Below the pieces are notes generated by a model that was not told where the DNA came from, did no database searches, and worked only from the letters and a program-made list of their open reading frames with translations. Both the position numbers and the translations under genes were made by a program. A DNA stretch of 64,000 nt. Origin: an uncultured Gammaproteobacteria bacterium (GTDB taxonomy: Bacteria; Patescibacteriota; Microgenomatia; Levybacterales; GWA1-39-11). Positions 5,305 to 24,911 of the stretch are shown here, in pieces. Numbering within the stretch: the first letter of the stretch is position 1; each line of letters starts with the position of its first letter. Where the stretch lies: positions 68,882 to 132,881 of the forward strand of contig CAZHDZ010000001.1 in assembly GCA_964531275.1 (NCBI GenBank). Reading direction: 5' to 3'.

Positions 5305-6687
5305 ATGTGGAAATTATTTATAGCCCATTTTATTGTCTCGGGCAGCAAGGATAGGGATAGGGCAAGAAGAGAGTTTATTCTTAATATAATTCTCTTTGCG
5401 TTGCTTGTTCTATCGACTACTGCCCTGACTTTTAACTTCTTACAACCGTTGTTATATCCGGCAAGCCGAGGTGGTGAATCAACTGTTGTTGTAGGTATCT
5501 TCTTCTCATTTATCGCATTCTTATATTTGCTATCCAGAGTGGGCAGAGGAAGATTGTCTACATATATCTTGTTGCTATCCTTGTTGGCAATCGCAATATA
5601 CAGGACTCATTACTGGGGTGCGGATACTGCCGTGATGTTATTGCTATTTGCTCTCATCATAACAATGGCAGGAGTACTTCTGGATAGCAAGCATGCTTTT
5701 GTTTTTACTGTTATAAGTGCAATTAGTATATTGAGCTTTACTTATATGGAGGCTAATAAGTTGTATACGCCTCAAAATTATTGGAAACAGGATCCTGTTA
5801 AATTATCTGATACATTCGTTAATGCGATCATCCTTCTTATAATCTCAACAATAACGTGGTTATTTAATAGGGATCTTCAAAAAGCATTAAGGCGCGCCAG
5901 AAGATCTGAAAAAGCGCTTAAGAAAGAAAGAGATAGGTTAGAAATTACCGTCGAAAAAAGAACGGCTGAATTAAAAGCAGTTCAGACCGAAAAAATTGCA
6001 CAGTTGTATCGGTTTGCGGAATTCGGAAGACTTTCCTCTGGTCTTTTTCACGACTTGGTAAATCCTCTTACTATTGTTTCGCTTAATCTAAGGAGTATCT
6101 CAAGTAGCCAGAAAGATATGAAGGAATTAACAGATATGCGCGTTGCATTGGAAAGAGCTATTGAAGGTACAAGACGTCTTGAAGGATTTGTGGAGGCAGC
6201 AAGAAAACAAATACAGAATAGAGATGTTAATGTAAAATTTTCATTAATTAAAGAAACCAACCAAAGTCTCCAAATGCTTGATTATAAGGCAAAAGAGGAA
6301 AAGGTAAAAATATATTTTGAATCCGAAAAGGATATTGCAATTATTGGTAACCCATTCAAATATAGCCAACTAGTTCTGAATCTAGTGTCTAATGCAATAG
6401 ACGCTTATCAAGGATCCAGAAAGAAAAACCGTGCAGTTACCATCAAGCTAGTTAAAGTCGAGAACATCATTAAGCTTTCCATACAAGATTTTGGAAGTGG
6501 TATAGAGAAACAGAATTTAGATAAAATTTTTGATCCTCTTTTTACAACAAAAAGTTTTACAAGAGGTACAGGTATTGGACTTTCAATATCAAAGGAAATT
6601 GTTGAAAGTGGATTATGCGGCAATATTCATGTAGTAAGTTCTAAAGTAGATGGAACTATATTTACTGTCTCATTCCCAGAAGCATGA
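5305..6687 (+). CDS. sensor histidine kinase (membrane-embedded input domain, HisKA + HATPase_c)
   Basis: About 6 N-terminal TM helices, coiled coil, H-box FHDLVNPLT, N/G boxes (LVLNLVSNAIDA, DFGSGI, GTGIGLSIS); adjacent to the response regulator. Confidence 0.8.
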   Translation: MWKLFIAHFIVSGSKDRDRARREFILNIILFALLVLSTTALTFNFLQPLLYPASRGGESTVVVGIFFSFIAFLYLLSRVGRGRLSTYILLLSLLAIAIYRTHYWGADTAVMLLLFALIITMAGVLLDSKHAFVFTVISAISILSFTYMEANKLYTPQNYWKQDPVKLSDTFVNAIILLIISTITWLFNRDLQKALRRARRSEKALKKERDRLEITVEKRTAELKAVQTEKIAQLYRFAEFGRLSSGLFHDLVNPLTIVSLNLRSISSSQKDMKELTDMRVALERAIEGTRRLEGFVEAARKQIQNRDVNVKFSLIKETNQSLQMLDYKAKEEKVKIYFESEKDIAIIGNPFKYSQLVLNLVSNAIDAYQGSRKKNRAVTIKLVKVENIIKLSIQDFGSGIEKQNLDKIFDPLFTTKSFTRGTGIGLSISKEIVESGLCGNIHVVSSKVDGTIFTVSFPEA

Positions 6688-6755
6688 GGCGGGGTGGGAG
6701 GAAGACATTTAATAATTATTTAATATTCAAGCGTTAGTATAGGTACTTAATCCCC

Positions 6756-8687
6756 ATGCCAATTGATAATTCTGTAGAAAAAGCCATATTATTTCTTGCA
6801 AAATCGCAGCAGCCTAACGGATCATTTTTGAGCCTCTCATCTAAAAGTCCTACAAATTTTAAGGAGGCAATTATTTTCCCGTCTGTCTTTTCATCAACCT
6901 TGATACTGTCTAGTCTGGCTAGGATAAACGAGAATGAGACTTTAAAAACAATAAAGGAAAAGCTTGCAAGCTTCTTACTTGCTCAAAGAAGTGACGCATG
7001 GTCATTCAACTACTGGGATAGAGAGGCAGTTGAATATAAAAAAATTCCCTATCCCGATGATCTTGATGACACGTTTTCGGCGCTAGCTGCTTTGCATCTC
7101 TATGATCCAAAAATAATTACTGGCGAAGTACTTGCAAAATCAGTTTCTCTTTTGACTACTCTTGAGGTTGATGAAGGCGGTCCTTATCGCACGTGGCTCG
7201 TTGATGAGAACAGTGAAAGTGCGTGGAAGGATGTTGATTTTGCTGTTAATTCAAACATCGGATACTTTTTGTCTCTAATTGGTGTCAGTCTTCCAAAACA
7301 AATAGATTTCTTGGAGCGACAAATTGCTGAGGATAAAATAGAATCTCCTTATTATCCCAATAGTTATCCGTTAATTTACTTTATTTCACGATTCTACAAA
7401 GGTCCTTATAAGGACAACTTAATTAAAAAAATCCACAGTCTCAGTCCTTCTAACTCATTGGATAATGCTCTTTGCGCGCTTTCTCTAATGAACCTAAATG
7501 AAAAGCACGAGAATATTAAAGATCATGTAGAGTATGTTATTGAAAACCAAATGAACGGGTATTGGGAGGCGGCACCATTTTATACAGGAGTTAACCCAAA
7601 AAGAGACAATAATTATTTTGCAGGAAGTGACGAGCTGACTACAGGATTTTGCATCGAAGCATTATACGCTTTTTCTCAATATACTGCCGTTATTTCACAA
7701 AAAAATATTGAGAAGAAAGGGGAAGAATTAGATAGAAGTATTCTTAATCTGACGAAGAAACGATTCCTAAACACTGGCCGCGGTCTTCAAGAGCAGGCAA
7801 TAGAAGTGATAGATTCTGTAAAGCGAGATGATAAGTCATTTCAAATAACATTGACACCGTTTTATTTTACTTTTTCTTTGGGAAACCACGGTTCTGATGT
7901 TAGCGATGAATTACTTGTTGCCTTGGGAAGTGCAAATTTATATGGGTGGATTGCTTATTCAATTTATGACGATTTCTTGGATGAAGAGGGTGAACTTGCA
8001 AAACTTTCAGTGGCTAACGTGGCATTGAGAGAGTCTTCCGGAATATTCGAAACCATTCTTCCCGGCTCTGGATTTGTGAATCATGCCCGTAAGGTAATTG
8101 ATGCGATTGATTCAGCAAATACTTGGGAGGTAACGATGACAAGGAAAAAAATAAAAAAAGGAGATATGCTCAAAGAAATTGTACTGCCTGATTGGGGGAA
8201 CTTTGAGAAAATTGCTGCAAGATCCTTCGGTCATGCATTAGGTCCGATTGCAATCTTATATTCACTTGGGTTTTATGACCAGTCGTCAGAAGTAAAAAAT
8301 CTTGAAAAGTTTTTTAGGTCATATCTTATTGCAAAACAGTTAAATGATGATGCTCATGATTGGCAGGAAGACCTGCAAAAAGGACATATGACACCTGTTG
8401 TTACACTTTTGTTGCATAGAATGTTAATAAAAAAACCAAATTATGAAGTTATCTCAATGAATATATTGATACAAGATCTTAATGAGATCTTTTGGTATGA
8501 CGTAATTCTTGATACCTGCGAAAATATACTAATGTATGTTAGGAAGGCGAAGAAGTACATTCAAAAAATTCCAATTATTGAAAAGCCAGAAATTCTAGAA
8601 GATCTCTTGATAGGCGTGGAGAATGGTGCTTTAAAGGCCATTAAGGACCGGAAAAAAACAGTCGACTTTCTTAATGTTTATTCTTAA
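6756..8687 (+). CDS. two-domain protein: N-terminal squalene-cyclase/prenyltransferase-like alpha/alpha-toroid domain (DxDDT motif) + C-terminal helical domain with DDxxD and NSE-like motifs (terpene synthase-like?)
   Basis: N-term repeat AILFLAKSQQPNGSF and YPDDLDDTFSALAAL closely resemble squalene-hopene cyclase QxxDGGW repeat and YPDVDDTAVVVWAL active-site region; C-term has IYDDFLDEEGE and about 115 aa later LNDDAHDWQED. Confidence 0.4.
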   Translation: MPIDNSVEKAILFLAKSQQPNGSFLSLSSKSPTNFKEAIIFPSVFSSTLILSSLARINENETLKTIKEKLASFLLAQRSDAWSFNYWDREAVEYKKIPYPDDLDDTFSALAALHLYDPKIITGEVLAKSVSLLTTLEVDEGGPYRTWLVDENSESAWKDVDFAVNSNIGYFLSLIGVSLPKQIDFLERQIAEDKIESPYYPNSYPLIYFISRFYKGPYKDNLIKKIHSLSPSNSLDNALCALSLMNLNEKHENIKDHVEYVIENQMNGYWEAAPFYTGVNPKRDNNYFAGSDELTTGFCIEALYAFSQYTAVISQKNIEKKGEELDRSILNLTKKRFLNTGRGLQEQAIEVIDSVKRDDKSFQITLTPFYFTFSLGNHGSDVSDELLVALGSANLYGWIAYSIYDDFLDEEGELAKLSVANVALRESSGIFETILPGSGFVNHARKVIDAIDSANTWEVTMTRKKIKKGDMLKEIVLPDWGNFEKIAARSFGHALGPIAILYSLGFYDQSSEVKNLEKFFRSYLIAKQLNDDAHDWQEDLQKGHMTPVVTLLLHRMLIKKPNYEVISMNILIQDLNEIFWYDVILDTCENILMYVRKAKKYIQKIPIIEKPEILEDLLIGVENGALKAIKDRKKTVDFLNVYS

Positions 8688-8731
8688 GCCCATCTGTATT
8701 GTCGTGTACTCCTCCTATATAATCTAAGCAA

Positions 8732-10168
8732 TTGATGAGAAATATTCTTGTATTTATCATCTGCCTGACATTATTCCTCTCTTTGTGCATTGGGTTTGAT
8801 TTGTCACCTTATTTAAGGGGACCTGCTCCTTACCCACCAGATTGGCGCTGGGATTATCTATTTGTAAATACCTATGACAAAATATGGTTTCCCCTCGTAG
8901 TCACATTAGTCGCTCTTTTTGCATACATAAAACTTGATGGCAGTAGAAAAAAATGGTCACTTACAAAAGAGGTAAAGACAATTTTAATACTAATTGTCAT
9001 CTCAGTAGTCTTTCAGTTTGCAGTACTTTATTTTAACAGAGCTGGAATCTCAGTACTTCTTCATAGGATAATTAATCCTGATTTGAATGGATATTTTTCA
9101 TCAAGTCTAAGGATAAATGATCTTGGTGCTTTTTTTAGAAATTTTAATGATATTGTCTTAACATTAGATCAGCATGCGCAAGGGCATCCTCCATTTTCTA
9201 TTCTTCTTTTTTGGTTGATAAACAAATTCTTCTTAATAACACCTTTTCTTTATGAAATAGTAGAAAAGATTAATCCTTCACGTGGTGACGTTTTGCAAAT
9301 GTGGAAAGCTCTTCTACCAAATGAAAAATTGGGAGCTCTTTTTTCCACGGTACTTATACCATTCTTGACCTCGTTGATTATTTACCCACTTTATAAAATT
9401 TCTAAGAAATTATATGGGAGAAGTGTGGCATTAAGAACTGGATTCTCATATATATTTATTCCAGGAGTTGTTCTTTTTGTACCTATAAATGATGTTTTTA
9501 TTTCACTATTCCCTCTCTTTTCGTTTTGGATATTTATTGAGGCTATTAGTAGAAGCAGTAAAAAACTGTTCATTCTTTCTGGATTACTATTTTCGGTTGG
9601 GCTTTTCTTTAGTCTTTCTCTTCTTCCATTGCTTGTTGTATTTGTTATGTACAGTGTTCCTTTTCTTTGGAGAAAGTCAGAACTGGTTGGATTTGGCTTT
9701 TTACTTAGTGGTTTTGGATTGTTAGTGATACCGGTTCTATTAAGCTTCTTTGGATTCAATTCAGTTCAAGTTCTTTTTACAATCATGTCCGGGCTTCCTG
9801 AGAATAGGTATTACTTTCCATGGGTATTCTACAATTTATATGACTTTTTTATATTCTTTGGAATTGGATTTAGTTTCATCTACTTCTACATGATCGGAAG
9901 TATGATCAAAAATAGAAAATTGAAAAAACTGGACCTAGTTTTTTTAGGTACATTCACCATGCTATTAGTTCTCGATCTTTCAGGATCTGTTAGGGGGGAA
10001 GTCGGTAGGATATGGATTCCTTTTATGCCCTTTCTTTTGTTGCCAGTTATTAATTTTGTATCAACTAAAAAAGGTCTTAATTTTTCAAGAAACGAATTTG
10101 TGATTTTTATACTTGCCCAATGCGCTTTGCTACTTGTCGTGAATGAATATTGGGTTACCTTGTGGTAA
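8732..10168 (+). CDS. polytopic integral membrane protein, function unknown (possibly GT-C-like)
   Basis: >10 predicted hydrophobic helices across 478 aa; no soluble catalytic motif seen. Confidence 0.4.
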   Translation: MMRNILVFIICLTLFLSLCIGFDLSPYLRGPAPYPPDWRWDYLFVNTYDKIWFPLVVTLVALFAYIKLDGSRKKWSLTKEVKTILILIVISVVFQFAVLYFNRAGISVLLHRIINPDLNGYFSSSLRINDLGAFFRNFNDIVLTLDQHAQGHPPFSILLFWLINKFFLITPFLYEIVEKINPSRGDVLQMWKALLPNEKLGALFSTVLIPFLTSLIIYPLYKISKKLYGRSVALRTGFSYIFIPGVVLFVPINDVFISLFPLFSFWIFIEAISRSSKKLFILSGLLFSVGLFFSLSLLPLLVVFVMYSVPFLWRKSELVGFGFLLSGFGLLVIPVLLSFFGFNSVQVLFTIMSGLPENRYYFPWVFYNLYDFFIFFGIGFSFIYFYMIGSMIKNRKLKKLDLVFLGTFTMLLVLDLSGSVRGEVGRIWIPFMPFLLLPVINFVSTKKGLNFSRNEFVIFILAQCALLLVVNEYWVTLW

Positions 10169-10192
10169 GGAATTTGACATACCTTTCACCTC

Positions 10193-10654
10193 GTGTACAA
10201 TATGCATTGGCCTATGAGAATACTAAAAATTATTGCAATTTCTTGTTTCCTTATACTTTTAAGCACCAACTCTGCCTTTGCAGCTGACGTCTTAATTAAA
10301 GGAAAGATAATTGATGCAAAGGAGCAGCCAGTAGGGCTTAGCTCTATTAAGTTTATAAATCAACAGGGGCAAAGTGTAGCAGATACTTCAACGGATTCAA
10401 ATGGTGCTTATTCCGTAATTATTTCTCAAGGAACCTACACAATTGAGGCGTCCGGACCTGCCGACAGTAAATTTAAAACTACAACCTTGAAAGACCAGGC
10501 TCTAAATAGTGATACAGACAAAAATATAATACTTTCAACGGGTTCTCTTCCAGCAATAGGGTCATTACCTTGGATTCCTATTTTAATAGTTGCAGCAATT
10601 ATCGTTGTAATTATTATCTTTTTTGCAGTCAGACGACGTGGTTCCTCCCTTTAG
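10193..10654 (+). CDS. secreted carboxypeptidase-regulatory-like (transthyretin-like) domain protein with C-terminal membrane anchor
   Basis: Signal peptide (…STNSAFA/AD), beta-sandwich pattern GKIIDAKEQPVGLSSIKFINQQGQ…TDSNGAYSV…GTYTIEASG, then C-terminal TM + RRRG tail. Confidence 0.45.
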   Translation: MYNMHWPMRILKIIAISCFLILLSTNSAFAADVLIKGKIIDAKEQPVGLSSIKFINQQGQSVADTSTDSNGAYSVIISQGTYTIEASGPADSKFKTTTLKDQALNSDTDKNIILSTGSLPAIGSLPWIPILIVAAIIVVIIIFFAVRRRGSSL

Positions 10655-10704
10655 TATTTGTTGACTTCGCTTTTCCCACATGAAACAATCAATTAATTGA
10701 TGTT

Positions 10705-11175
10705 ATGAAAGTAAAAGCTGTTGTCTTTATTTTAGTTTCAATTCTTTTCCTAAACCTTGCAAATGTATCGCTTGCTCAAGAAGCTAAGGTTAGCGGTAAA
10801 GTTGTGGATAGCCAAGGTAGCCCTATTGCAAACAGCAAGGTTAAAGTTACAAATACGGACGGCAAAATCGTTACTGTCGTGACAGACATGGAAGGTACTT
10901 ACACCCTAACAGTTCCGTCTGGTACATATTCAATCGAAGTAGATGGTGCACAAGGCAGCAGTCTTCCTTCAATAAAAACCGCAGGTCAGATCATCTCAGG
11001 TGATACTGTTAAGGATTTTACAATAGAAACAGGTTCTCAAGCTGTAACTGAAGATAAAGCCTCGGGAAAGAATAATACAATCATTTATATACTATTGGGA
11101 GTTTTAATTTTGATCGGGACATTCGGGGTGTATCTTTATATGAAGAATTATAAGAAAAAGAGTTCTATCTCCTAG
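10705..11175 (+). CDS. secreted carboxypeptidase-regulatory-like domain protein with C-terminal membrane anchor (paralogue of preceding gene)
   Basis: Signal peptide (…VSLA/QE), SGKVVDSQGSPIANSKVKVTNTDGK…TDMEGTYTLTVPSGTYSIEVDG, C-terminal TM + KNYKKK tail. Confidence 0.45.
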   Translation: MKVKAVVFILVSILFLNLANVSLAQEAKVSGKVVDSQGSPIANSKVKVTNTDGKIVTVVTDMEGTYTLTVPSGTYSIEVDGAQGSSLPSIKTAGQIISGDTVKDFTIETGSQAVTEDKASGKNNTIIYILLGVLILIGTFGVYLYMKNYKKKSSIS

Positions 11176-14100
11176 TTATTCAGGCGGCTGCCATCCTCCG
11201 GATCTTATCTTGGTACTAAATGCTCCAAGCCAGTAGTCTACAAAATTGATAACCCCATTTTTGTCAAAATCCCAAGATGAGTTATAGACCTTTTGTTGGT
11301 ATGTGATCATATCAAAAACTGAATACCAACTAAGTGGTGGATCAACAATACCAACCTTAGTTGTGCAATCAATTATTCCAGTGTAGGTAGGCCCATTCTT
11401 TTTATCTATTGCTGATGGATTGTACCAATTTGTTATTCTCCAATATACGGTTTTTCCGCAGTTACTTTCGTAAAACACATAACCTGTTGTAAGACTGACA
11501 AATCCTACGTACTTATTGGTAATTTGTCTTAGGGCTGCGTAGCTTTGGTTAAGCGGTGCGTCTTGGGAATAGGCACTTGGAATACCAAAGGAGTTGCTTT
11601 GTTGTGTGTAGTCTCCCGAAAAGTCAGACTTTAAAGATATTTGCATATTCCATCCAGCACCACTTGGCGCAAATCCCGGATGATCGAAGAAGAATACTGC
11701 ATAGTTCTTGAAGAACTTTGTTTGATCGATCTTGTATCCCGGTACTATAGTGTCGTAGTTTATTGGTGGTGTTGTTGGATATGAAGTAGGCGTTGGTGTG
11801 GGTGTTGGAGTTCTGGTTGGGGTTGGAGATGGTGTAGGTGGATTTGTTGGACTTGCTTGCGCTATTCGAACTATTCCATTTGCCGGATTTTCAACAGTTG
11901 TTTGTCCCTGCTTTGCTACCCAGAATTGATACGGATAGTCCTGCGCAAGGAGTCCACTTTGTGGAAGAGAGATTGTTATTGGAATGCTTTTTGTTGCTCC
12001 GGCAGCCAAGGTGAAGCTTGGAGGTACTCCGGCAAGACCCCAGCCCGATGGATATCCATAACTTATTGTGTAGAAAGTAGGGGCACATGTCGGTGTGTTG
12101 TTGTTCTGGATCAAAAGGGTGTTGGAAAGTGTTGCACCAGGTGTCGCTAAAATTATTGGTTGAGAAAGCGTAACTGTCTGCATCGTATCGCAATTGGCAG
12201 CAACGGTTGGCGTTGGAGATATTGTAGAACCTGGAAGTAACACTCGAGTAGTACCATTTACAATTATCGGATCAACAGAAGGTTGTCCTGATGTTGAAAT
12301 CCAGAACTGATAATTATAATCTTGTGCAAGAAGCCCATCAGATGGAAGATAAAGTGTATAGTCGATAATATCTGTAATGCTCGGTAACAATGCACGATAC
12401 ATACCTCTTTGTAAGAGGCCCCATCCGGTGGGAATGCTATAACTCACTGTATAAAAAACAGGACCACATGTAGGAGAAGCATTACTTTTTATTGTCATCT
12501 TACTTTTAATCTTTGTTCCTGGTAAACCCAAAGTTAAAGGCTCGGACAACGTGACAGTTGGTTGTGTTATACATTCGGCAGGTATAGTTGGTGGTGGAGT
12601 AATAGTTGGTGGTGCTCCTGTTACTCTGACGATAGCGTTCAGCCAACCGACCGCTTTTACCCACCAACTAGTATATTCTGAGGATAAATAGGTACCTGCC
12701 GAAAAGTTTGCAACGTAATCTTTATTGGAAAGTCCTACTGAAGGTACATGGATTGTATATGCAAGCTCTTTCGTCTCTCCCGTGCCTAATAGAAATGGAC
12801 CTGAAGGTCCAAATCGACCAGTAGGTCCAGTAACTAACCATGTATCTGGATTTATGTTACCGGGATAAGTATAATTTATTATATATTCAATCGGTTTGCA
12901 AACACCTGTATTATTGTTCTTAAGAACAACCGTAGTTGTAACCTTTGACCCAGGGGTTGCAAGAATCGGGGCGTTATCTTTTAGCGAGATGGTGTGTTGC
13001 TGTGAGCAATTAGGATAAGCTGGGGTGGGAGTTGGCCAAGGAGTCTGAGTGAAATTACTACTACAACCCACCTGAGTATATACTGGTATCGAATTTCCTA
13101 TATAATCTTGACAATAATTTGATGTTTTATCAGACGGTGACAAAATAAAAGATCCATAACAATAAAGCTTTTCACCCTCATAACATATATTACCTAGTGA
13201 AGTGCCTAGTCTGGATACCTTTGTAACTAAATGGTGGTAAGAATCGACTGCATACCCATAAGCAGGATCAGAAGAAATAAGGATATCCCGAGGGGTTGGG
13301 GTGGGAGTCTGAGGCATAGGTGTTGGGGTGGGAGTCTGAGGCATAGGTGTTGGGGTTTGTGTTGGACTTGGAAATACGGTTGGCGTAATTCCTCCTTGAG
13401 GAAGCAAATTAGGAGTTCCCAGTCCTGTAGGGCCATCATAGCCTACACCTGCCATGCATTTGAGCATTCCACCACAGCTTCCATTTGAGCCAATATTTAC
13501 ATCTCTAAATTTATCCTGTTGGGTATATGGGAAAGCAGAACCATCAGTTCCTGATGGTATGCCTCCCTGAAGAGCAATGACTGCTGCATATAGTGGAGAG
13601 GATAGACTAGTGCCTCCAATTATCTTCCATCCTGATCTTCCAAAGCCATTTCCCGAATCATAGACAGCAGCTCCCGTATAGGGACTTGCAACAGCCGAAA
13701 CATCGGAAACTGATTTTTTCGTGCCACATCCAACCGCAGACCAGTTAGGGAGTGAAGTTTGGTAAGTTCCTGCAAGTCGTGTTGCAGAACATCCACTCCC
13801 TGCCCCATTCCATGTTTTCTCACTTGCATATGTATTGTCGGGGAAGAGCGACAATTCTGTTCCTCCTACACCTATAACTTTGGAGTGAGAAGCAGGGAAG
13901 ATTGTTCCGTACCCCCAATCCCCCGATGAAGCTGTAACTGCTATTCCGGGATGGTCGTAGAAAGACTCATATTGAGCATATGAAGGGTACTCATAGTTGC
14001 CATAACTATTGGAAATTACTGTGGCGCCCATTTGTGCCGCTCTGCTTGTTGCAGCCCCTAAATTAGTAAAATAATTATCCTCTGCTTCTACGAGCAATAT

Positions 14101-15225
14101 TTTGCATGTTTGGCATATAGCATGTGCAATTTGTACATCCATTGCTGCTTCTACTGCCCAGGTTGAGTCACGTCCTGAAGGTAGCGGACTCGTTTGGCCG
14201 TTTTGGTTAACAATGGTTAGGCATCCATTTGCTTTAGTGCATGGTGGAAGACCAAATGTTTGAGAGTAAACGGCAAGATCTGCTTCGATGGTTGGGCTAT
14301 GGAATGCAAGTATTACTGCTACTGTTTTTGGTCCAAAGGTTGTGGGAGTATCACATTGCCAATCAATGGTGTTGGCCCCAGGCGTGCAAGGCAAATTGTA
14401 TGCTTTGTGCATTTTTTCAGGTGAAAGTCCGTTTGGAGTAGCGAGGGTCGTGAGTGGAGTACCTTTGGAATCAGTTACGAGATCTGACATGCAGGATGCA
14501 GCCCCATCTTGAGGGTCGCTGCAGACGCTTATTGAAGGACGTTCAACAATTGGCATGGGTTCTTCGGGATTATTTGAGGTCGCGGACGCAAGGTCTGCAT
14601 TGGGGCTCATGATCTCAAAACATTCTTGAGCTTCATTTTTAGTGAAGTCACATATGTAGCAATTGTCGTCCCCGGGACAAGAAGGATTTTTTGCGCCATT
14701 CCTTCCATATATAGCCCTTGGATCACTTTTAAATGTAGACGACTTTGGTTTGTAGCAAAGTGCTACTGACCCACTGCATTCAGTCATGAAAATATCTTTT
14801 GCTTCACTTGAATTGACTGCTTTATTTTGAAGATCTCCACCTTTTGTTAACTCTTGGACACAAGAGGGCATTTGGCTCACTGTATCTTTAGTTGCAAGCT
14901 CATTTCTGCACGAAGAATTATCTGTCCAAGGAGTTTTCTTCTCTGTTGCATAATAATATTTTGTAGCGGATGCTAAATCTTTTGTTACCTGCTGGGCTGC
15001 AACATCTTGGGTTTTGTTAAATGATTCAAGGGGATTAATTGCTATAAGAACTATAGCAAACATAACTGCGAGAATACCCAGTACAATCAAAAGCTCAACC
15101 AAAGTAAAGCCGGTCCTCACTTTTTTCAAAAGCTTAGATCCATTTTGCCCTTTTTGCAAAAGGGTGAATCCTTTGGCAATCTTGTGCCTAATTTTATGAC
15201 GAATAACTTCTATATTTAAAAGCAT
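11176..15225 (-). CDS. type IV pilin-like (class III signal peptide) N-terminus fused to an S53 (sedolisin-family) serine peptidase, three CARDB-like repeat domains, Pro/Thr linkers and a C-terminal dockerin/EF-hand-like motif
   Basis: N-terminal prepilin motif KKVRTG/FTLVELLIVLGILAVMFAIVLIAI. The sedolisin Glu/Asp block is ...WAVEAAMDVQIAHAI. The active-site Asp region is ASSGDWG and the catalytic Ser motif is GGTSLSSPLYAAVIAL. There are PTPTPMPQTPTPTP linkers and three about 115-aa repeats, each starting C…T(V/I)(T/S)L…ATPG… and carrying the conserved motif LLAQDY(N/P)YQFW. The C-terminus carries DFDKNGVINFVDY. Confidence 0.75.
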   Translation of the reverse strand: MLLNIEVIRHKIRHKIAKGFTLLQKGQNGSKLLKKVRTGFTLVELLIVLGILAVMFAIVLIAINPLESFNKTQDVAAQQVTKDLASATKYYYATEKKTPWTDNSSCRNELATKDTVSQMPSCVQELTKGGDLQNKAVNSSEAKDIFMTECSGSVALCYKPKSSTFKSDPRAIYGRNGAKNPSCPGDDNCYICDFTKNEAQECFEIMSPNADLASATSNNPEEPMPIVERPSISVCSDPQDGAASCMSDLVTDSKGTPLTTLATPNGLSPEKMHKAYNLPCTPGANTIDWQCDTPTTFGPKTVAVILAFHSPTIEADLAVYSQTFGLPPCTKANGCLTIVNQNGQTSPLPSGRDSTWAVEAAMDVQIAHAICQTCKILLVEAEDNYFTNLGAATSRAAQMGATVISNSYGNYEYPSYAQYESFYDHPGIAVTASSGDWGYGTIFPASHSKVIGVGGTELSLFPDNTYASEKTWNGAGSGCSATRLAGTYQTSLPNWSAVGCGTKKSVSDVSAVASPYTGAAVYDSGNGFGRSGWKIIGGTSLSSPLYAAVIALQGGIPSGTDGSAFPYTQQDKFRDVNIGSNGSCGGMLKCMAGVGYDGPTGLGTPNLLPQGGITPTVFPSPTQTPTPMPQTPTPTPMPQTPTPTPRDILISSDPAYGYAVDSYHHLVTKVSRLGTSLGNICYEGEKLYCYGSFILSPSDKTSNYCQDYIGNSIPVYTQVGCSSNFTQTPWPTPTPAYPNCSQQHTISLKDNAPILATPGSKVTTTVVLKNNNTGVCKPIEYIINYTYPGNINPDTWLVTGPTGRFGPSGPFLLGTGETKELAYTIHVPSVGLSNKDYVANFSAGTYLSSEYTSWWVKAVGWLNAIVRVTGAPPTITPPPTIPAECITQPTVTLSEPLTLGLPGTKIKSKMTIKSNASPTCGPVFYTVSYSIPTGWGLLQRGMYRALLPSITDIIDYTLYLPSDGLLAQDYNYQFWISTSGQPSVDPIIVNGTTRVLLPGSTISPTPTVAANCDTMQTVTLSQPIILATPGATLSNTLLIQNNNTPTCAPTFYTISYGYPSGWGLAGVPPSFTLAAGATKSIPITISLPQSGLLAQDYPYQFWVAKQGQTTVENPANGIVRIAQASPTNPPTPSPTPTRTPTPTPTPTSYPTTPPINYDTIVPGYKIDQTKFFKNYAVFFFDHPGFAPSGAGWNMQISLKSDFSGDYTQQSNSFGIPSAYSQDAPLNQSYAALRQITNKYVGFVSLTTGYVFYESNCGKTVYWRITNWYNPSAIDKKNGPTYTGIIDCTTKVGIVDPPLSWYSVFDMITYQQKVYNSSWDFDKNGVINFVDYWLGAFSTKIRSGGWQPPE
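13296..13360. repeat. 27-bp tandem direct repeat (about 2.5 copies) inside the pilin-peptidase gene, encoding PTPTPMPQT linker units
   Basis: gttggggtgggagtctgaggcataggt appears twice back-to-back followed by a partial third copy; in frame. Confidence 0.7.
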
Positions 15226-15242
15226 ACTCTAGTATTTTTACG

Positions 15243-15272
15243 TTGACAATATTTTGAGAATATACATATAAA
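15243..15272 (+). promoter_or_regulatory. candidate sigma70-type promoter for the DUF5684 gene
   Basis: TTGACA (15243-15248), 18-nt spacer, TATAAA (15267-15272), a few nt upstream of ORF start at 15278. Confidence 0.3.
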
Positions 15273-15277
15273 TAGAG

Positions 15278-15745
15278 GTGGACTACAAAGAATTAAGTAC
15301 TTTTGACACCTCCGGTATACCAGCTGTTGATATAGGTGTAATTTGGATTATTGGTGCAATAGTTGCTGTAATATCTGTACTGGTTTTTCTGTTAATTCTT
15401 TTTGCAACTTGGAGAATATTTTCAAAAGCAGGTAGGCCGGGGTGGTATGCGTTAATACCCATTTTTAATGTTTATGTAATGCTTCAAATTGTCAAAAAAC
15501 CTACATGGTTAACGCTTCTTTTCTTTATTCCCTATGTACAGCTAATTCCGCAAATCATTATTTCGATCGAGCTTGGTAAGGCATTTGGCAAAAGTTCCGC
15601 GTTCTCCGCAATTTTTATACTCATCTTGCCTTTGGGGTACTTTATTATTGCATTTGATGATAGTAAGTATCTCTATGGGGTAAATTCAAATCCCCCCGAT
15701 CCTCTGGTTCCTCCACCAGTTACACCTCCCGATGCGTACGTTTAG
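15278..15745 (+). CDS. DUF5684-like small membrane protein
   Basis: Pattern WRIFSKAGRPGWYALIPIFNVYVMLQIV typical of the widespread DUF5684 family; Pro-rich C-terminus; apparent GTG start. Confidence 0.5.
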   Translation: MDYKELSTFDTSGIPAVDIGVIWIIGAIVAVISVLVFLLILFATWRIFSKAGRPGWYALIPIFNVYVMLQIVKKPTWLTLLFFIPYVQLIPQIIISIELGKAFGKSSAFSAIFILILPLGYFIIAFDDSKYLYGVNSNPPDPLVPPPVTPPDAYV

Positions 15746-16049
15746 TGTTGCTTTTTAATTTTAAGAACATTCTCCCGTACCCGAATACAATAATAATACC
15801 TCCGATCAAAATCCCTGAGCCAACAATTTGGATGGACAACTCTTGCTGCAAGGGGACTTTGTACGTCGCAGAGAACAGGGTGCAAATATTCTCTTTTTCC
15901 TTTACGCAGTCTCTTTTTTGGATATATCCGCCTTGCGATTGAGGCAGTAAGTAAAAATAAAGAATGATTGCAGCAATTATGCTTAGAAGCACCCAATAGA
16001 AGATAATATAAAAAGGATAATAATTGATTTTCGATGGTGTTAATTTCAT
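15720..16049 (-). CDS. small membrane protein, unknown function
   Basis: Two/three hydrophobic helices; ATGA start/stop overlap with upstream Excalibur gene suggests co-translation; alternative-frame ORF 15742..16128 considered a shadow. Confidence 0.3.
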   Translation of the reverse strand: MKLTPSKINYYPFYIIFYWVLLSIIAAIILYFYLLPQSQGGYIQKRDCVKEKENICTLFSATYKVPLQQELSIQIVGSGILIGGIIIVFGYGRMFLKLKSNTKRTHREV

Positions 16050-16312
16050 GGTAAATTCTCACATACCAAGCCATCCTTATCATTGTCCAGCTGCTTTGAA
16101 TCCGAAATGGAATACTTATAGAGAACATAGAATTCCTGAGCTTCGCTTTGGGTTATAAATAATGAGCATGTTGGTGAATCTCCATCGGAAAGGGTCGGTT
16201 TAACAAAGCGATGCTTATTGTAAGAGGGTACTAGAGCAAAAAAGTAGTAAATAGCGAGACATAACTCTGCCAAGAATGTAACAACAGCAACCCCACCAGA
16301 TAAAAATTTCAC
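16046..16312 (-). CDS. Excalibur (extracellular calcium-binding) domain protein
   Basis: C-terminal DNDKDGLVCE matches the Excalibur DxDxDGxxCE motif; N-terminal hydrophobic segment. Confidence 0.5.
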   Translation of the reverse strand: MKFLSGGVAVVTFLAELCLAIYYFFALVPSYNKHRFVKPTLSDGDSPTCSLFITQSEAQEFYVLYKYSISDSKQLDNDKDGLVCENLP

Positions 16313-16446
16313 AAATCCAAGATAGACAAAAATTATGAACTATTTATTAAATTCAGACGTTAAAATCCCTCTCGCATTCTTGATTTTTTGCAGTTATAAT
16401 TATGTAATTCATCAGCTTCTGGGGTTCGAATTTATCTTCCAAAGAA

Positions 16447-16475
16447 TTGACAGTTAGCAATTAATTTGCTAAACT
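16447..16475 (+). promoter_or_regulatory. candidate lon promoter (-35 TTGACA, 17-nt spacer, -10 TAAACT) with embedded palindromic operator TTAGCAA-TTAAT-TTGCTAA
   Basis: TTGACA 16447-16452; perfect 7-bp inverted repeat 16454-16472; -10-like TAAACT 16470-16475; AGGA RBS before ATG 16488. Confidence 0.4.
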
Positions 16476-16487
16476 GCTAAAGGAATT

Positions 16488-18890
16488 ATGGCAAACGATT
16501 ACGATAATTACAACGAAAAAATGATACCGGTAATTCCAATAAGGGATGGTATCGTTTTTCCCCACACAGAATCTATCCTAACCTTTGGGCGACCACGAAG
16601 CTTAGCCGCTCTTGAATCTGCTTTTTCGGGTGAGAGGGTCGTTTGTTTTGTGCTCCAAAAGAATCCCCGTCAAGAAGATCCAGATGTATCAGACCTATAC
16701 CAGATGGGTACGGTTGCTCACATTGAGAGAATGATCAGATCTGATGGTGAGGTTAACGCCTTGGTAAGAGGTCTTTCCAGAGCTCAAATCGTGAGCTTTT
16801 CTCAATCGACTCAATACATGCAAGCTGTAGTTCATGAAATAGATGATTTTGAAGCTGATAATCCTGAGTTGAGGGCTCTTATGAATCATTTGACTGCTTC
16901 ATTTAAGAAAGCGTTAAGCCTTGGAAAGCAGGCAGACTTTTTAGTCTTTATGAATATCATGTCGGATATTTCTGCCTCAGAACTTGCTGATCAAATTGCT
17001 TCAACATTAGACATAAAAGGATCTGAAAGACAAGAAATTCTTGAGACAGTGAATGTCAAAAAAAGACTTGAAAAGGTTAGCGAATATTTAGACAAAGAAG
17101 TAAAAGTTCTTGAATTAGAGCGAAAAATTGCCTCAAAAACTCAGGAGCAACTCGAAAAATCGACAAAAGACGCAATTCTAAGAGAAAGACTTAAAACAAT
17201 CGAAAAGGAATTGGGTGAAACAGAAGATGGAGGAGAAATAAAGGAGCTTTCAGATAAGATCAAAAAGGCGGGAATGCCAAAAGATATTGAAGAAAAAATG
17301 ATGAAGGAGCTTAAAAAGCTTCAACAGCTTACTCCTTATAATCCAGAATCAGGATACCTGAGAAATTATCTTGAATGGATGGTTTCGATTCCTTGGAGTA
17401 AAAAAACCGAAAGCAAGATTGATATAAAAAGTGCTGAAAAAATTCTAGACGAAGGGCACTATGGACTCCAAAAGGTTAAAGAAAGGGTCATTGAGTACTT
17501 GGCCGTACATAAACTGTCCGGAAAAATGAAGGGTCCAATTCTTTGTTTTGCCGGGCCTCCAGGTGTAGGTAAGACATCTATTGGAAAAAGTATCGCAAAG
17601 TCTTTGGGACGAGAATTTGTAAAAGTATCGCTTGGTGGTATCCGAGACGAAGCTGAAATTAGAGGACATAGAAGAACATACGTTGGCGCACTTCCTGGGA
17701 GAATTATTCAGGGAATTAAAGATTCAGGTACTAAGAATCCAGTATTTATGTTGGATGAAATCGATAAGGTTGGAGCTGATTTTAGAGGGGACCCCTCATC
17801 TGCGCTCCTTGAGGCTTTGGATCCAGAGCAGAATGGCGGATTTTCAGATCATTATCTTGAAGTTCCTTTTGACCTTTCTGATGTTATGTTTATAACAACA
17901 GCAAATAGGCTTGACACTATTCCTCCGGCCTTAAGAGATAGACTTGAAATCATTACTTTCGCAGGGTATACACAGGATGAGAAATTCCATATCGCAAAAG
18001 ACTTTCTAGTTAAAAAGCAACTTGCAATGCACGGGTTGAAAGCATCTCAGGCAAAAATTTCAGACGCAGCCCTTTCTCATGTAATTAATAGGTATACACG
18101 AGAAGCTGGAGTAAGGAATTTGGAAAGACAAATAGCAACCATTGATAGAAAAATTGCTAGAAAAGTTGCTGAAGGTCAGAAGGAAAAGATTGTTGTTACC
18201 GATAAGACCGTTACAAAATTCTTAGGTCCTGAGAAATACTCATCGACCATTGCTGAGCGTAAAAATGAGGTTGGAATTGCTACTGGGCTTGCTTGGACTG
18301 AGGTTGGCGGAGACATACTTTTCATTGAAGTAGCACTTATGCCAGGAAAAGGTCAACTGATAATCACGGGTCAGTTGGGAGACGTCATGAAAGAATCATG
18401 TCAGGCTGCGATGACTTATGTCAGAGCAAGAGCAAAGAAATTTGGACTTTCAGAAGATTTTTACAAGACACTGGATATACATATCCATGTTCCTGAAGGT
18501 GCTGTGCCTAAGGATGGTCCTTCTGCGGGGGACACCATAACAACAGCCTTAGTTTCTGCTTTGACAAAGATTCCAACAAATCACTTAGTTGGTATGACCG
18601 GAGAAGTAACTATCAGAGGAAAAATACTAGAAATTGGAGGAGTGAAGGAGAAGGTTATTGCAGCGCATAGAGCTGGTCTTAGGACAATTATTATGCCTAA
18701 GGAGAACAGAAAAGATCTTGAAGAAATTCCAAAGGAGGTCGCAAAAGACATCAGATTTGTCTTTGTATCTCACATGGACGAAGTATTAAAAGTAGCGCTA
18801 ACAAAACCCTTGCAGGGATTTAAAGAAATAAAGGGAGAGAAAGAAAAGAAGCACAATCTAACAGCCCCTACCCCAACCCTTGCTGACTAG
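16488..18890 (+). CDS. lon: ATP-dependent Lon protease (LonA)
   Basis: N-terminal LON domain, Walker A GPPGVGKTS, Walker B VFMLDEIDK, proteolytic Ser motif DGPSAGDT and catalytic Lys region GGVKEKVIAAHRAG; 800 aa. Confidence 0.95.
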   Translation: MANDYDNYNEKMIPVIPIRDGIVFPHTESILTFGRPRSLAALESAFSGERVVCFVLQKNPRQEDPDVSDLYQMGTVAHIERMIRSDGEVNALVRGLSRAQIVSFSQSTQYMQAVVHEIDDFEADNPELRALMNHLTASFKKALSLGKQADFLVFMNIMSDISASELADQIASTLDIKGSERQEILETVNVKKRLEKVSEYLDKEVKVLELERKIASKTQEQLEKSTKDAILRERLKTIEKELGETEDGGEIKELSDKIKKAGMPKDIEEKMMKELKKLQQLTPYNPESGYLRNYLEWMVSIPWSKKTESKIDIKSAEKILDEGHYGLQKVKERVIEYLAVHKLSGKMKGPILCFAGPPGVGKTSIGKSIAKSLGREFVKVSLGGIRDEAEIRGHRRTYVGALPGRIIQGIKDSGTKNPVFMLDEIDKVGADFRGDPSSALLEALDPEQNGGFSDHYLEVPFDLSDVMFITTANRLDTIPPALRDRLEIITFAGYTQDEKFHIAKDFLVKKQLAMHGLKASQAKISDAALSHVINRYTREAGVRNLERQIATIDRKIARKVAEGQKEKIVVTDKTVTKFLGPEKYSSTIAERKNEVGIATGLAWTEVGGDILFIEVALMPGKGQLIITGQLGDVMKESCQAAMTYVRARAKKFGLSEDFYKTLDIHIHVPEGAVPKDGPSAGDTITTALVSALTKIPTNHLVGMTGEVTIRGKILEIGGVKEKVIAAHRAGLRTIIMPKENRKDLEEIPKEVAKDIRFVFVSHMDEVLKVALTKPLQGFKEIKGEKEKKHNLTAPTPTLAD

Positions 18891-24137: not shown

Positions 24138-24911
24138 CTAGCCCATGAACAGGCCGCCATCCGCACCGAACACCTTGCCGGTGATGTAGGAAGCGCCAGG
24201 GCCTGCAAGGAAAGCAACGACTGGTGCCACATCCTCGGGCTCACCGAGTTTGTCGGCAGCCCGCCTGTCGCGGACGAGCGGAATATGGCTGTTGACGGTT
24301 TGGGTCGCATCATCAGGCATTTCCGCAATGATGTCCGTCCGGATGAATCCGGGTGAGACTGCGTTGACGGTGATGTTGTTGCGGCCAAGTTCCTTAGCGA
24401 GAGCGAGGGTCATGCCGATCATGCCAGCCTTGGAAGCCGCGTAGTTAACCTGCCCCAGGTTGCCCATTTGGCCGACAACGCTTGTGATATTGATGACACG
24501 GCCATGCTTGGCTTTCTGCAGCGGCCTAACGGCCGCTTTGACCATCAAGAACGCCCCTCGAAGGTTAGTGTTGTGGACAGCATCCCAATCTTCGAGGGTC
24601 ATCCGAAGGAGGGGCCCATCACGGGTTATTCCTGCGTTATTGACGAGGATGTTGAGGCCGCCATATCGTGCGGTGACTGCATCGACGAGGTTTTCGGCAT
24701 CAGCCTGTATGGAGACGTCGCCTCTGATGGCAAACGCTTCGCCTCCCATGTTGATGATTTGTGCGACGACCCCATTTGCAGCGGTCTCGCTTGTGTTGTA
24801 GTTCACCCCGACCTTTGCTCCCTGAGAAGCGAGTTCGCGGCAAATTGCTGCGCCGATCCCTTTTGACCCTCCGGTCACAAGGGCGACTAGGCCGTCTAAC
24901 GGTCCGGACAA
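24138..24911 (-). CDS. fabG: 3-oxoacyl-[ACP] reductase (FabG)-type SDR, encoded in a high-GC island
   Basis: [11 protein letters not shown] cofactor motif, NNAG, catalytic NYAASKAG and PGFIRTD; about 63% GC versus about 35-40% flanks; TTG start with GGAGA RBS. Confidence 0.85.

Follow-up and report, generated by a model that had tools for sequence, protein, structure and literature searches.

A modular type IV pilin carrying an atypical S53 (sedolisin)-type peptidase domain in a probable Patescibacteria bacterium

The 64,000-nt stretch of DNA analysed here (the window; assembly GCA_964531275.1, contig CAZHDZ010000001.1, positions 68,882 to 132,881) encodes on its minus strand a 1349-amino-acid (aa) protein that joins a type IV pilin module to a sedolisin (S53)-type peptidase, which we refer to as the S53-pilin. 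A modular pilin has been defined as an N-terminal pilin module joined by a linker to one or more modules that are not peculiar to pilus biology (Raynaud et al. 2021, PMC8179133), and the S53-pilin has this layout, with the pilin module at aa 40–213 followed by the S53 domain, NEW3-type repeats and a C-terminal module. The evidence tilts towards an active protease displayed on the type IV pilus of a bacterium of the candidate phyla radiation (CPR), a reading that we hold with moderate confidence. The original prediction, made from the DNA letters of the window, had described a pilin-fused secreted sedolisin with three CARDB-like repeats and a dockerin/EF-hand-like C terminus. At the level of sequence comparison our analysis supports that interpretation in its essentials, and it corrects the labels given to the repeats and to the C terminus.

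The open reading frame (ORF) at 11176–15225 runs without interruption at its predicted length, and a public protein collection holds one identical protein together with 33 relatives of the full architecture (E from 0 to 1e-205). These relatives are 41–93% identical to the query and come from independent NCBI, ENA, JGI and Logan assemblies; the ORF is a real gene, and the fusion did not arise from faulty assembly. All 34 of the 34 pilin-fused sequences fall in one clade of a neighbour-joining tree built from catalytic domains, with no unfused member inside it, which points to a single, old fusion event. Depositors named two of the orthologues Candidatus Levyibacteriota and Patescibacteria group. 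Levyibacteriota are part of the Microgenomates group of Patescibacteria, and the G+C content of the window (~37%) is compatible with such a placement. The two names make an episymbiotic (CPR) context plausible, and from the orthologues we infer that the window comes from an uncultivated Microgenomates-group CPR (Patescibacteria) bacterium.

At its N terminus, the protein carries a class III (prepilin) signal, with a predicted prepilin-peptidase cut after Gly39 (codon 15109–15111; KKVRTG39/F40TLVE44-LLIVLGILAVMFAIVLIAI) and the hydrophobic run LLIVLGILAVMFAIVLIAI behind F40TLVE44. The signal matches Pfam N_methyl (23.7 bits; threshold 21.2) and NCBIfam TIGR02532 (20.0 bits; threshold 16.3). In 29 relatives the motif G/A, cut, F-T-L-(I/V)-E stands behind a basic leader, which is 3–15 aa long in most of them, with G/A conserved at −1, F/Y at +1 and Glu at +5. 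The signal reads as canonical and intact, in agreement with the original prediction. Counted from the first ATG, the leader would be 39 aa, unusually long against the leaders of the family, and it would include a decayed duplicate of the cleavage motif (KGFTLL, aa 18–23); an in-frame TTG at 15129–15127, confirmed by reading the codons in the DNA, would instead give a typical 7-aa leader, MKKVRTG. Two promoter-like sites overlap ATG 15225 or lie downstream of it, a weak hint that transcription starts downstream of this codon; the scan returned 7 promoter-like sites against 10.5 expected from shuffled controls (terminator-like sites, 6 against 3.7), and as a whole it is not above its shuffled control. 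The decayed duplicate, in the leader region at 15157–15225 (minus strand; aa 1–23), is in tandem, IAKGFTLL being followed after 16 aa by RTGFTLVELL, and relative P0002 has a single copy of the leader and cleavage motif (IEVIRVKHKKGISLGFTLVELL).

Behind the cut lies a pilin module with Phe40 (+1), Glu44 (+5), a hydrophobic α1N segment, a long α1 helix and a globular head containing eight Cys. Glu+5, the Asn-Pro pair at aa 64–65 (+25/+26) and the eight head Cys are invariant across the family alignment. An AlphaFold2 (AF2) model of aa 30–660, computed from a 64-sequence alignment (predicted local distance difference test, pLDDT, 88.3; predicted template-modelling score, pTM, 0.86), places helices at aa 42–95, then short helices and three strands (pLDDT ~80–95). 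As modelled, the pilin module is complete, comprising the α1 helix and a disulfide-rich head. The similarity extends beyond the hydrophobic helix, and the head itself is homologous to genuine pilins. Among the matches listed from species-representative genomes, its best stand-alone relative, a 180-aa pilin, comes from a Candidatus Gottesmanbacteria metagenome-assembled genome (L005, 9965–10507) and is 29% identical over 172 aa (pair E 2e-23). The gene for this pilin lies directly behind pilB (T2SSE and MshEN), pilT (T2SSE) and pilC (T2SSF), and a Peptidase_A24 prepilin peptidase and three N_methyl-motif genes, presumed minor pilins, are found a few kb downstream. The weaker relatives of the head are ordinary stand-alone pilins of 175–227 aa.

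The L005 locus as a whole (5948–17791 of JAUXTO010000030.1) is a compact pilus locus, with pilB, pilT, pilC, the 180-aa pilin, a PMT_2/TMEM260-like glycosyltransferase, an opposite-strand ORF (12440–14695), the prepilin peptidase (A24) and four small ORFs that were scanned, three of which contain the N_methyl motif. The position of the glycosyltransferase directly behind the pilin suggests O-glycosylation of that pilin.

Searches with the single sequence fail on the protease domain, so a family profile and a fold search were needed to settle its S53 identity. Pfam Peptidase_S8 scored 17.5 bits on the single sequence, under the threshold of 21.8; an NCBIfam scan had no match to the domain, and phmmer against PDB likewise returned no match to it, finding only geopilin N termini. 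In the Foldseek search of PDB, ranks 1–17 are all S53 enzymes (sedolisin, kumamolisin, kumamolisin-As and TPP1; E 1.5e-19 to 4.6e-15), with TM-scores normalised to the target of 0.47–0.75 (0.70–0.75 against mature catalytic chains) and 19–25% identity, and S8 subtilases enter the list only from E 3.7e-9. The family profile matches kumamolisin with E 4.4e-35, covering residues 2–354 of the mature enzyme, and aligns Glu359 with Glu78, Asp363 with Asp82, Asp436 with Asp164 (SSGDWG) and Ser540 with Ser278 (GGTSLSSP); from kumamolisin structures we take E78, D82, D164 and S278 to be the residues with catalytic roles. In the S53-pilin these residues belong to the motifs WAVEAAMD (aa 356–363), ASSGDWG (aa 432–438) and GGTSLSSP (aa 537–544), and all four, together with eight Cys, are invariant in 64 aligned relatives. 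An RDV...GVGYD stretch aligns with D...GPGWD of kumamolisin, presumably the Ca site of that enzyme, and one relative, P0079, bears the NCBI name 'S53 family peptidase'. By its modelled fold and by profile the domain is S53, closer to S53 than to S8, and since the catalytic and Ca-site residues are all kept, the protease is apparently active.

The catalytic set proposed in the original prediction is thereby borne out, and every motif quoted there is present (GFTLVE at aa 39–44, the three catalytic motifs, and DFDKNGVINFVD at aa 1319–1330). A Pfam scan had been put forward there as the check, with refutation to follow if Peptidase_S53 stayed below threshold. The scan placed N_methyl above its threshold and Peptidase_S8, on the single sequence, below, and by that refutation test the S53 identity would have been wrongly rejected.

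The domain departs from typical S53 enzymes in what precedes it. According to PMC2635056, the hallmarks of S53 are a Ser-Glu-Asp triad, a subtilisin-like fold and an acidic optimum, and the precursor of a typical sedolisin starts with a domain of ~190 aa, which is cut off autocatalytically. No match to the Pro-kuma_activ prodomain (PF09286) was found by Pfam in the window protein at E ≤ 1, and in the unfused relatives P0041, P0066, P0079 and P0110 a signal peptide and a short Cys hairpin lead directly into the catalytic domain. The stretch ahead of the catalytic domain (aa 214–262) is kept alike in pilin-fused and Sec-signal relatives. Since the fold and the catalytic residues are those of S53 and the prodomain is missing, we describe the domain as an atypical, prodomain-less S53-type enzyme; the label 'acid protease' given to it in the original prediction is an assumption. 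The prodomain-less, disulfide-rich clade to which it belongs comprises 1317 proteins at E ≤ 0.001 among the candidates scored, from Actinobacteria and other groups, and in one CPR lineage of this clade the pilin has replaced the Sec signal.

The base composition of the gene is uneven. The G+C content is 45.7% in the S53 module (13390–14439), against 38.9% in the pilin head (14587–15108) and 37.2% in the window, and the closest unfused S53 relatives are ~50% identical, many of them actinobacterial. The higher G+C content is compatible with a catalytic domain acquired from a higher-G+C donor, and amino-acid composition could be an alternative cause of the difference. Cargo has also been swapped among relatives of the S53-pilin, as seen in P0052, P0003 and P0034. 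P0052 (768 aa) begins with an NHL-like repeat region and has, besides the S53 domain, a true dockerin with two loops (precomputed PF00404), and P0003 and P0034 carry the same ISRFNFDGTSAG-type repeats downstream of the S53 domain. C-terminal modules thus appear to be shuffled freely within the family.

The far end of the protein ties it once more to pilins. The C-terminal module contains the Ca loop D1319-F-D-K-N-G-V-I-N-F-V-D1330 (11236–11271), and no second Ca loop was found in the module, relaxed patterns included. It has no Pfam match, Dockerin_1 (PF00404) being absent at E ≤ 1. With one loop only and no Pfam match, the C terminus is not a dockerin; the EF-hand-like half of the earlier label stands and the dockerin half falls. 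An exhaustive search of 1.84 billion representative proteins retrieved only 18 carriers of this rare module, and in 15 of them the match ends no more than 2 residues from the C terminus of the protein. At least eight carriers have a class III signal (N_methyl above threshold in six that were scanned, precomputed Pfam matches for two more), and in the small carrier P0133 a prepilin motif is visible in the sequence. Carriers other than S53-pilins include proteins of 340–460 aa composed of a class III signal, a pilin head, a Pro/Thr (P/T) linker and the C-terminal module, and the module is found behind at least three different types of pilin head. In one such protein, P0131 (400 aa), the head is 41% and the C-terminal module 59% identical to those of the S53-pilin, with only a P/T linker between them. 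With the same head and module in P0131, the window protein reads as a bimodular pilin into which ~940 aa of cargo, namely the protease, the 4-Cys domain and the three repeats, look to have been inserted. Word-indexed searches returned 3 proteins for the C-terminal module and 4 for the pilin head, the known family not being relisted.

A further protein from the representative search, P0144 (917 aa), joins an S8 subtilase with a Fervidolysin-type prodomain to NEW3-type repeats and a variant of the C-terminal Ca-loop module, without a pilin N terminus; one of its repeats is a Pfam-matched NEW3, and two repeat-like stretches are visible in the sequence. Its architecture suggests that a cassette of protease, NEW3 repeats and C-terminal module has been combined with different proteases and export signals.

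Between the protease and the C-terminal module, both Pro/Thr linkers of the original prediction are present (aa 613–649 and aa 1125–1150). The first is followed by a small 4-Cys domain, with similar stretches in P0003, P0005 and P0008, and then by three repeats, R1 to R3, which in a MAFFT alignment each show a conserved Cys pair. They had been described as three Cys-bearing repeats of about 115 aa sharing an LLAQDY(N/P)YQFW block. The repeats are homologous and the Cys hold, the length fails for R1 (140 aa), and the block is found in R2 and R3, with GLSNKDYVANF and a 13-residue insertion in R1 instead. A hidden Markov model (HMM) built from R1–R3 found 68 copies in 32 family proteins. When 21 family copies were scanned with Pfam, 14 matched NPCBM_assoc/NEW3 (PF10633; best E 1.3e-8) and one matched CARDB (PF07705; E 0.061), and precomputed PF10633 matches are recorded on many relatives. 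The window protein itself has no CARDB match at E ≤ 1, and its R1–R3 have no PF10633 match in the whole-protein scan at E ≤ 1; taken singly, R1 has no Pfam match at E ≤ 0.1 and R3 matches only FixG_C, at E 0.11. The window copies are too diverged for a match of their own, so they take the NEW3-type label by homology to the family copies. AF2 models R3 as a β-sandwich (pLDDT 87–96). The repeats are thus probably NPCBM_assoc/NEW3-type, immunoglobulin (Ig)-like domains, and the CARDB identity was not upheld beyond the general likeness of an Ig-like sandwich. For aa 640–1349 the AF2 model is poor (pLDDT 62 overall, 50–70 in the C-terminal module), and Foldseek searches with it retrieved generic Ig-like domain arrays only, at TM-scores of ~0.1. 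A cohesin–dockerin-like self-interaction was considered and rejected, the cohesin matches of the repeats being too weak (Pfam E 0.03 in 2 of 21 copies; PDB E 0.045).

Table 1. Features of the S53-pilin gene and its CarboxypepD_reg neighbours, in positions of the window.
Feature	Position	Strand	Residues (aa)	Basis and remarks
Whole gene, modular type IV pilin with S53 peptidase	11176–15225	minus	1349 aa	ATG 15225–15223, TAA 11178–11176; codons checked
Leader peptide region	15109–15225	minus		39 aa from ATG 15225, or 7 aa from TTG 15129–15127
Pilin module	14587–15108	minus	40–213	N_methyl, TIGR02532, AF2, homology to L005 pilin and P0131
Linker and N-terminal extension of catalytic module	14440–14586	minus	214–262	Conserved Cys235...Cys245 hairpin, VTDSxGxPL stretch
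Sedolisin (S53)-type catalytic domain	13390–14439	minus	263–612	AF2, Foldseek, family profile; 10 Cys
Predicted catalytic residues	14149–14151; 14137–14139; 13918–13920; 13606–13608	minus	Glu359; Asp363; oxyanion Asp436; Ser540
Pro/Thr-rich linker 1	13279–13389	minus	613–649	Composition (65% P+T); AF2 pLDDT <50
Small 4-Cys domain	13021–13278	minus	650–735	Cys 681, 689, 705, 721; low-confidence AF2 model
Three Ig-like repeats, NPCBM_assoc/NEW3-type by homology	11854–13020	minus	R1 736–875; R2 881–1002; R3 1008–1124
Pro/Thr-rich linker 2	11776–11853	minus	1125–1150	Composition (77% P+T)
C-terminal module	11179–11775	minus	1151–1349	Cys pair, single EF-hand/dockerin-like Ca loop; ends GGWQPPE
Convergent CarboxypepD_reg neighbour	10705–11175	plus	156 aa	PF13620, 44.4 bits; last base abuts S53-pilin stop codon
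Second, paralogous CarboxypepD_reg membrane protein	10193–10654	plus	153 aa	PF13620, 36.7 bits

The gene meets its nearest neighbour tail to tail. The two CarboxypepD_reg proteins that the original prediction placed beside the S53-pilin are confirmed, both scoring above the PF13620 gathering threshold of 32.3 bits (Table 1). The nearer of the two consists of a signal peptide, a CarboxypepD_reg β-sandwich, a C-terminal transmembrane helix and a basic tail. In all five of the five loci compared (the window and those of P0003, P0017, P0007 and P0031), a convergent CarboxypepD_reg gene ends 0–10 nt from the S53-pilin stop codon, and at the P0031 locus it is kept though the gene content is otherwise unrelated. 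These neighbours lie at 10193–11175 (+) in the window, 14063–15039 in L001, 13473–13850 in L002 and 13014–13490 in L083, and the second paralogue is found in the P0003 locus too. In unfused relatives from other phyla, CarboxypepD_reg stands behind the S53-like domain in one chain (P0104, catalytic match at aa 185–361 and CarboxypepD_reg at aa 428–503; P0076, CarboxypepD_reg at aa 454–528). Fusion within one chain in one lineage and adjacency kept in another suggest functional coupling of CarboxypepD_reg to the protease, which we treat as a lead and not as proof, the domain being common in secreted proteins.

Further features of this neighbourhood were observed. The C terminus of the 10193–10654 protein (SLPAIGSLPWIPILIVAAIIVVIIIFFAVRRRGSSL) has an LPxxG-like motif, a hydrophobic helix and a basic tail and recalls a sortase sorting signal, and its paralogue at 10705–11175 has a weak Gram_pos_anchor match (E 0.0065). 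The divergent upstream neighbour of the S53-pilin gene (15278–15745, plus strand) encodes a DUF5684 membrane protein (75 bits), which is kept at the P0003 locus and replaced by a NUDIX gene at the P0017 and P0007 loci.

How would such a protein work? On the pilus-display reading, the precursor would be inserted by Sec, and prepilin peptidase would cut after Gly39 and methylate Phe40. The mature protein would then be held in the membrane by α1N until the type IV machinery took it into a pilus, most likely as the tip subunit because of its roughly 140-kDa bulk. CPR bacteria are without an outer membrane and secretin, so this bulk should be no barrier. The distal C-terminal module and the Ig-like domains may bind a target surface, and the protease may cleave proteins outside the cell or on the host surface, so as to help attachment, breach an envelope or scavenge amino acids. 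The CarboxypepD_reg membrane protein encoded tail to tail could be a functional partner of the protease domain, in docking, regulation or self-protection. Published work provides the setting for such a sequence of events: PilB, PilT, PilC, PilM, PilN, PilO and PilD are widespread in CPR genomes and PilQ is absent (PMC6744442), modular pilins form a recognised class whose expected place is the pilus tip (PMC8179133), and PilX2, a modular minor pilin, contributes to the binding of the CPR bacterium TM7x to its host (PMC11623550).

Several observations weigh against pilus display of an active enzyme. The search for pilB, pilC and pilD advised in the original prediction came back empty, as there is no pilB, pilC, pilT, prepilin peptidase or second pilin gene in the window, even with relaxed motif patterns. 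The 20 larger window ORFs scanned, among them those for glycosyltransferases, PMT_2 proteins, a Na/H exchanger, a histidine-kinase-like protein and a PPDK-type enzyme, encode no protein of pilus biogenesis. No pilus genes lie within 10 kb of four orthologues (P0003, P0017, P0007 and P0031), and the loci of the small bimodular pilins P0126 and P0131 likewise have none nearby. The link to a pilus machine is thus drawn from homology and the literature, and it is from these that we infer pilus display. AF2 packs the head rigidly onto the protease (pTM 0.86), which could hinder polymerisation except at the tip, and the two candidate start codons (ATG 15225 and TTG 15129) leave the leader length ambiguous. 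On the enzymatic side, S53 proteases normally need a prodomain and acidic pH, according to PMC2635056, and neither is evident here. The activity of the prodomain-less clade is read from residue conservation, and the roles given above to the C-terminal module and to the CarboxypepD_reg neighbour are proposals.

The strongest competitor, possible but clearly less probable to us than pilus display, is a membrane-anchored surface enzyme outside any filament, in which the protease would sit near the membrane while linkers, Ig-like domains and the C-terminal module extend outwards across the wall or S-layer. It would fit an orphan gene far from any pilus gene, a very large cargo (~1100 aa beyond the head), a domain order that puts the protease beside the anchor and the putative binding module distally, and a partner-like CarboxypepD_reg neighbour that is also membrane-anchored. 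It has an archaeal precedent in functional non-pilin proteins processed by prepilin peptidase (PMC3387779), but the archaeal bindosome is itself regarded as a pilus-like assembly dependent on homologues of pilus-biogenesis proteins (PMC3387779). The full pilin head, moreover, is kept across the family and is homologous to an operon-encoded pilin, and such a head would be unnecessary for mere anchoring.

Pilus display can also be extended into a more elaborate proposal, which we regard as unlikely in its entirety: a retractable "grapple-and-cut" device of an ultrasmall episymbiont, whose tip would bind a host or prey cell through the Ca-loop module while the prodomain-less sedolisin digests surface proteins and the CarboxypepD_reg protein shields or docks the enzyme on the producer. 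If true, it would be the first demonstrated case of an enzyme acting from a type IV pilus, and a concrete molecular effector of the interaction between CPR bacteria and their hosts.

Release of the enzyme as a soluble protease seems improbable. The pilin module would then be an export device and temporary tether in place of the S53 prodomain, lost by self-cleavage in aa 214–262 or in the first P/T linker. Sedolisin precursors do lose an N-terminal domain of ~190 aa autocatalytically (PMC2635056), the ~175-aa pilin module occupies the prodomain position, and exposed linkers are available for cleavage. Against this, unfused relatives have nothing ahead of the catalytic domain but a Sec signal and the same short extension with its Cys hairpin, so the catalytic domain would fold and function without a prodomain-like partner; aa 214–262 is a conserved part of the catalytic module in fused and unfused forms alike, and the pilin module bears no similarity to Pro-kuma_activ (no Pfam match at E ≤ 1). 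Still harder to credit is an adhesin whose protease-fold domain is catalytically silent and only binds. Although most characterised modular pilins are adhesins (PMC8179133, PMC11623550) and the activity of this S53 clade is deduced from its residues, the Glu, Asp, oxyanion Asp and Ser are invariant in 64 of 64 aligned relatives and the sedolisin Ca-site motif is kept, as would be expected if the enzyme were active. An assembly chimera or a read-through of two genes, to which the unusual length and the contrast in G+C between the S53 part (45.7%) and the pilin head (38.9%) might point, has a negligible probability and is refuted by the same continuous architecture in 33 relatives from independent assemblies, by conserved synteny and by the single clade of fused catalytic domains.

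Elsewhere in the window, three membrane glycosyltransferases of the PMT_2 type (dolichyl-phosphate-mannose-protein mannosyltransferase-like) are encoded at 38938–40575 (minus), 40764–42272 (plus) and 58646–60208 (plus). A fourth candidate at 8732–10168 (plus), beside the CarboxypepD_reg genes, has a weak PMT_2 match, in an orthologue only. In the S53-pilin, the long Pro/Thr linkers suggest themselves as targets of O-glycosylation. At 24138–24911 (minus), a short-chain dehydrogenase-like ORF with a glycine-rich TGGSKGIG motif has 58% G+C against 37% in the window; the segment shows spurious overlapping ORFs on both strands and no Rfam match, and it looks like a recently acquired foreign gene. 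The Rfam scan of the window returned tRNA-Glu only, and four ORFs of 382–643 aa (6756–8687, 57477–58625, 60192–61841 and 61822–63543) have no Pfam match at E ≤ 1e-5.

CPR bacteria live on other cells and are unable to synthesise most building blocks. For attachment, envelope attack or amino-acid scavenging, a protease displayed on their surface or pili is a plausible tool. The evolutionary picture that emerges is of a single fusion event and of a bimodular pilin with cargo inserted, and the analysis also marks off, as a large clade, S53 enzymes that are rich in disulfides and have no prodomain.

The S53-pilin is built like known modular pilins (PMC8179133), with a class III signal and pilin module at the N terminus and, behind a linker, a grafted functional module. 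In Streptococcus sanguinis, PilB carries a vWA module and PilC a lectin module (PMC8179133); unlike PilB, a 461-aa precursor, the S53-pilin has 1349 aa and a cargo of an S53 peptidase and five further domains. Modular pilins account for the new functions that simple type IV filaments acquire, though all the characterised ones carry binding modules. They are frequent in CPR genomes, with representative examples from Magasanikbacteria, Falkowbacteria and Wolfebacteria (PMC8179133). The catalogue of 264 modular pilin architectures includes predicted S74 and M26 peptidase modules, and neither it nor its supplementary table contains an architecture of N-terminal pilin plus S8/S53 (PMC8179133). The S53 clade is invisible to single-sequence Pfam searches, which probably explains this omission. 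Full-text literature searches found no paper linking sedolisin or S53 with pilins or Patescibacteria. To our knowledge, pilins that bear an enzyme are so far on record only as predictions in databases (S74 and M26), none of them studied experimentally. The S53-pilin family adds a well-supported third enzyme class on pilins, one that domain databases had missed.

With sedolisin, kumamolisin and TPP1 (MEROPS S53, clan SB), the catalytic domain shares the subtilisin-like fold, the Ser-Glu-Asp triad with its ExxxD motif, the SGDxG oxyanion Asp, the GGTSxxxP serine motif and the C-terminal Ca-site motif. It differs from known S53 enzymes in having no pro-kumamolisin-type prodomain, its relatives beginning with a Sec signal or, here, with a pilin module; in five conserved disulfide pairs; and in an identity of 23–25% to solved S53 structures. 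The equivalent of kumamolisin Glu32 is Leu in the window protein and Asp in the family consensus. The repeats resemble the NPCBM_assoc/NEW3 and CARDB Ig-like domains as β-sandwich repeats of ~115–140 aa in secreted proteins, and differ from them by a lineage-specific conserved Cys pair and the YQFW block. Dockerins consist of two loop-helix segments in about 60–70 aa. As in the type I dockerin (PF00404), the C-terminal module has a 12-residue Ca loop of the form D-x-D-x-N-G-x-I-x-x-x-D followed by a helix; unlike a dockerin, it has a single loop at the end of a domain of ~200 aa and no Pfam match.

Two systems come close in the use made of the class III signal or of the pilin. The substrate-binding proteins of the Sulfolobus bindosome are, like the S53-pilin, functional, non-structural proteins with a class III signal that are exported, processed by prepilin peptidase and held at the cell surface (PMC3387779), processing being predicted for the S53-pilin. 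They are archaeal, carry solute-binding cargo and have no full head homologous to a structural pilin. PilX1 and PilX2 of the Saccharibacterium Nanosynbacter lyticus TM7x are, like the S53-pilin, large CPR pilins with accessory C-terminal domains; they are minor pilins with a proposed place at the tip, and efficient host binding requires PilX2 (PMC11623550). As accessory domains they have a jelly-roll and a β-propeller, with lectin-like predictions and no enzyme, and they are encoded in pilus loci (PMC11623550). According to their authors, PilX1 and PilX2 have no predicted PilD signal (PMC11623550), whereas the S53-pilin carries a canonical one.

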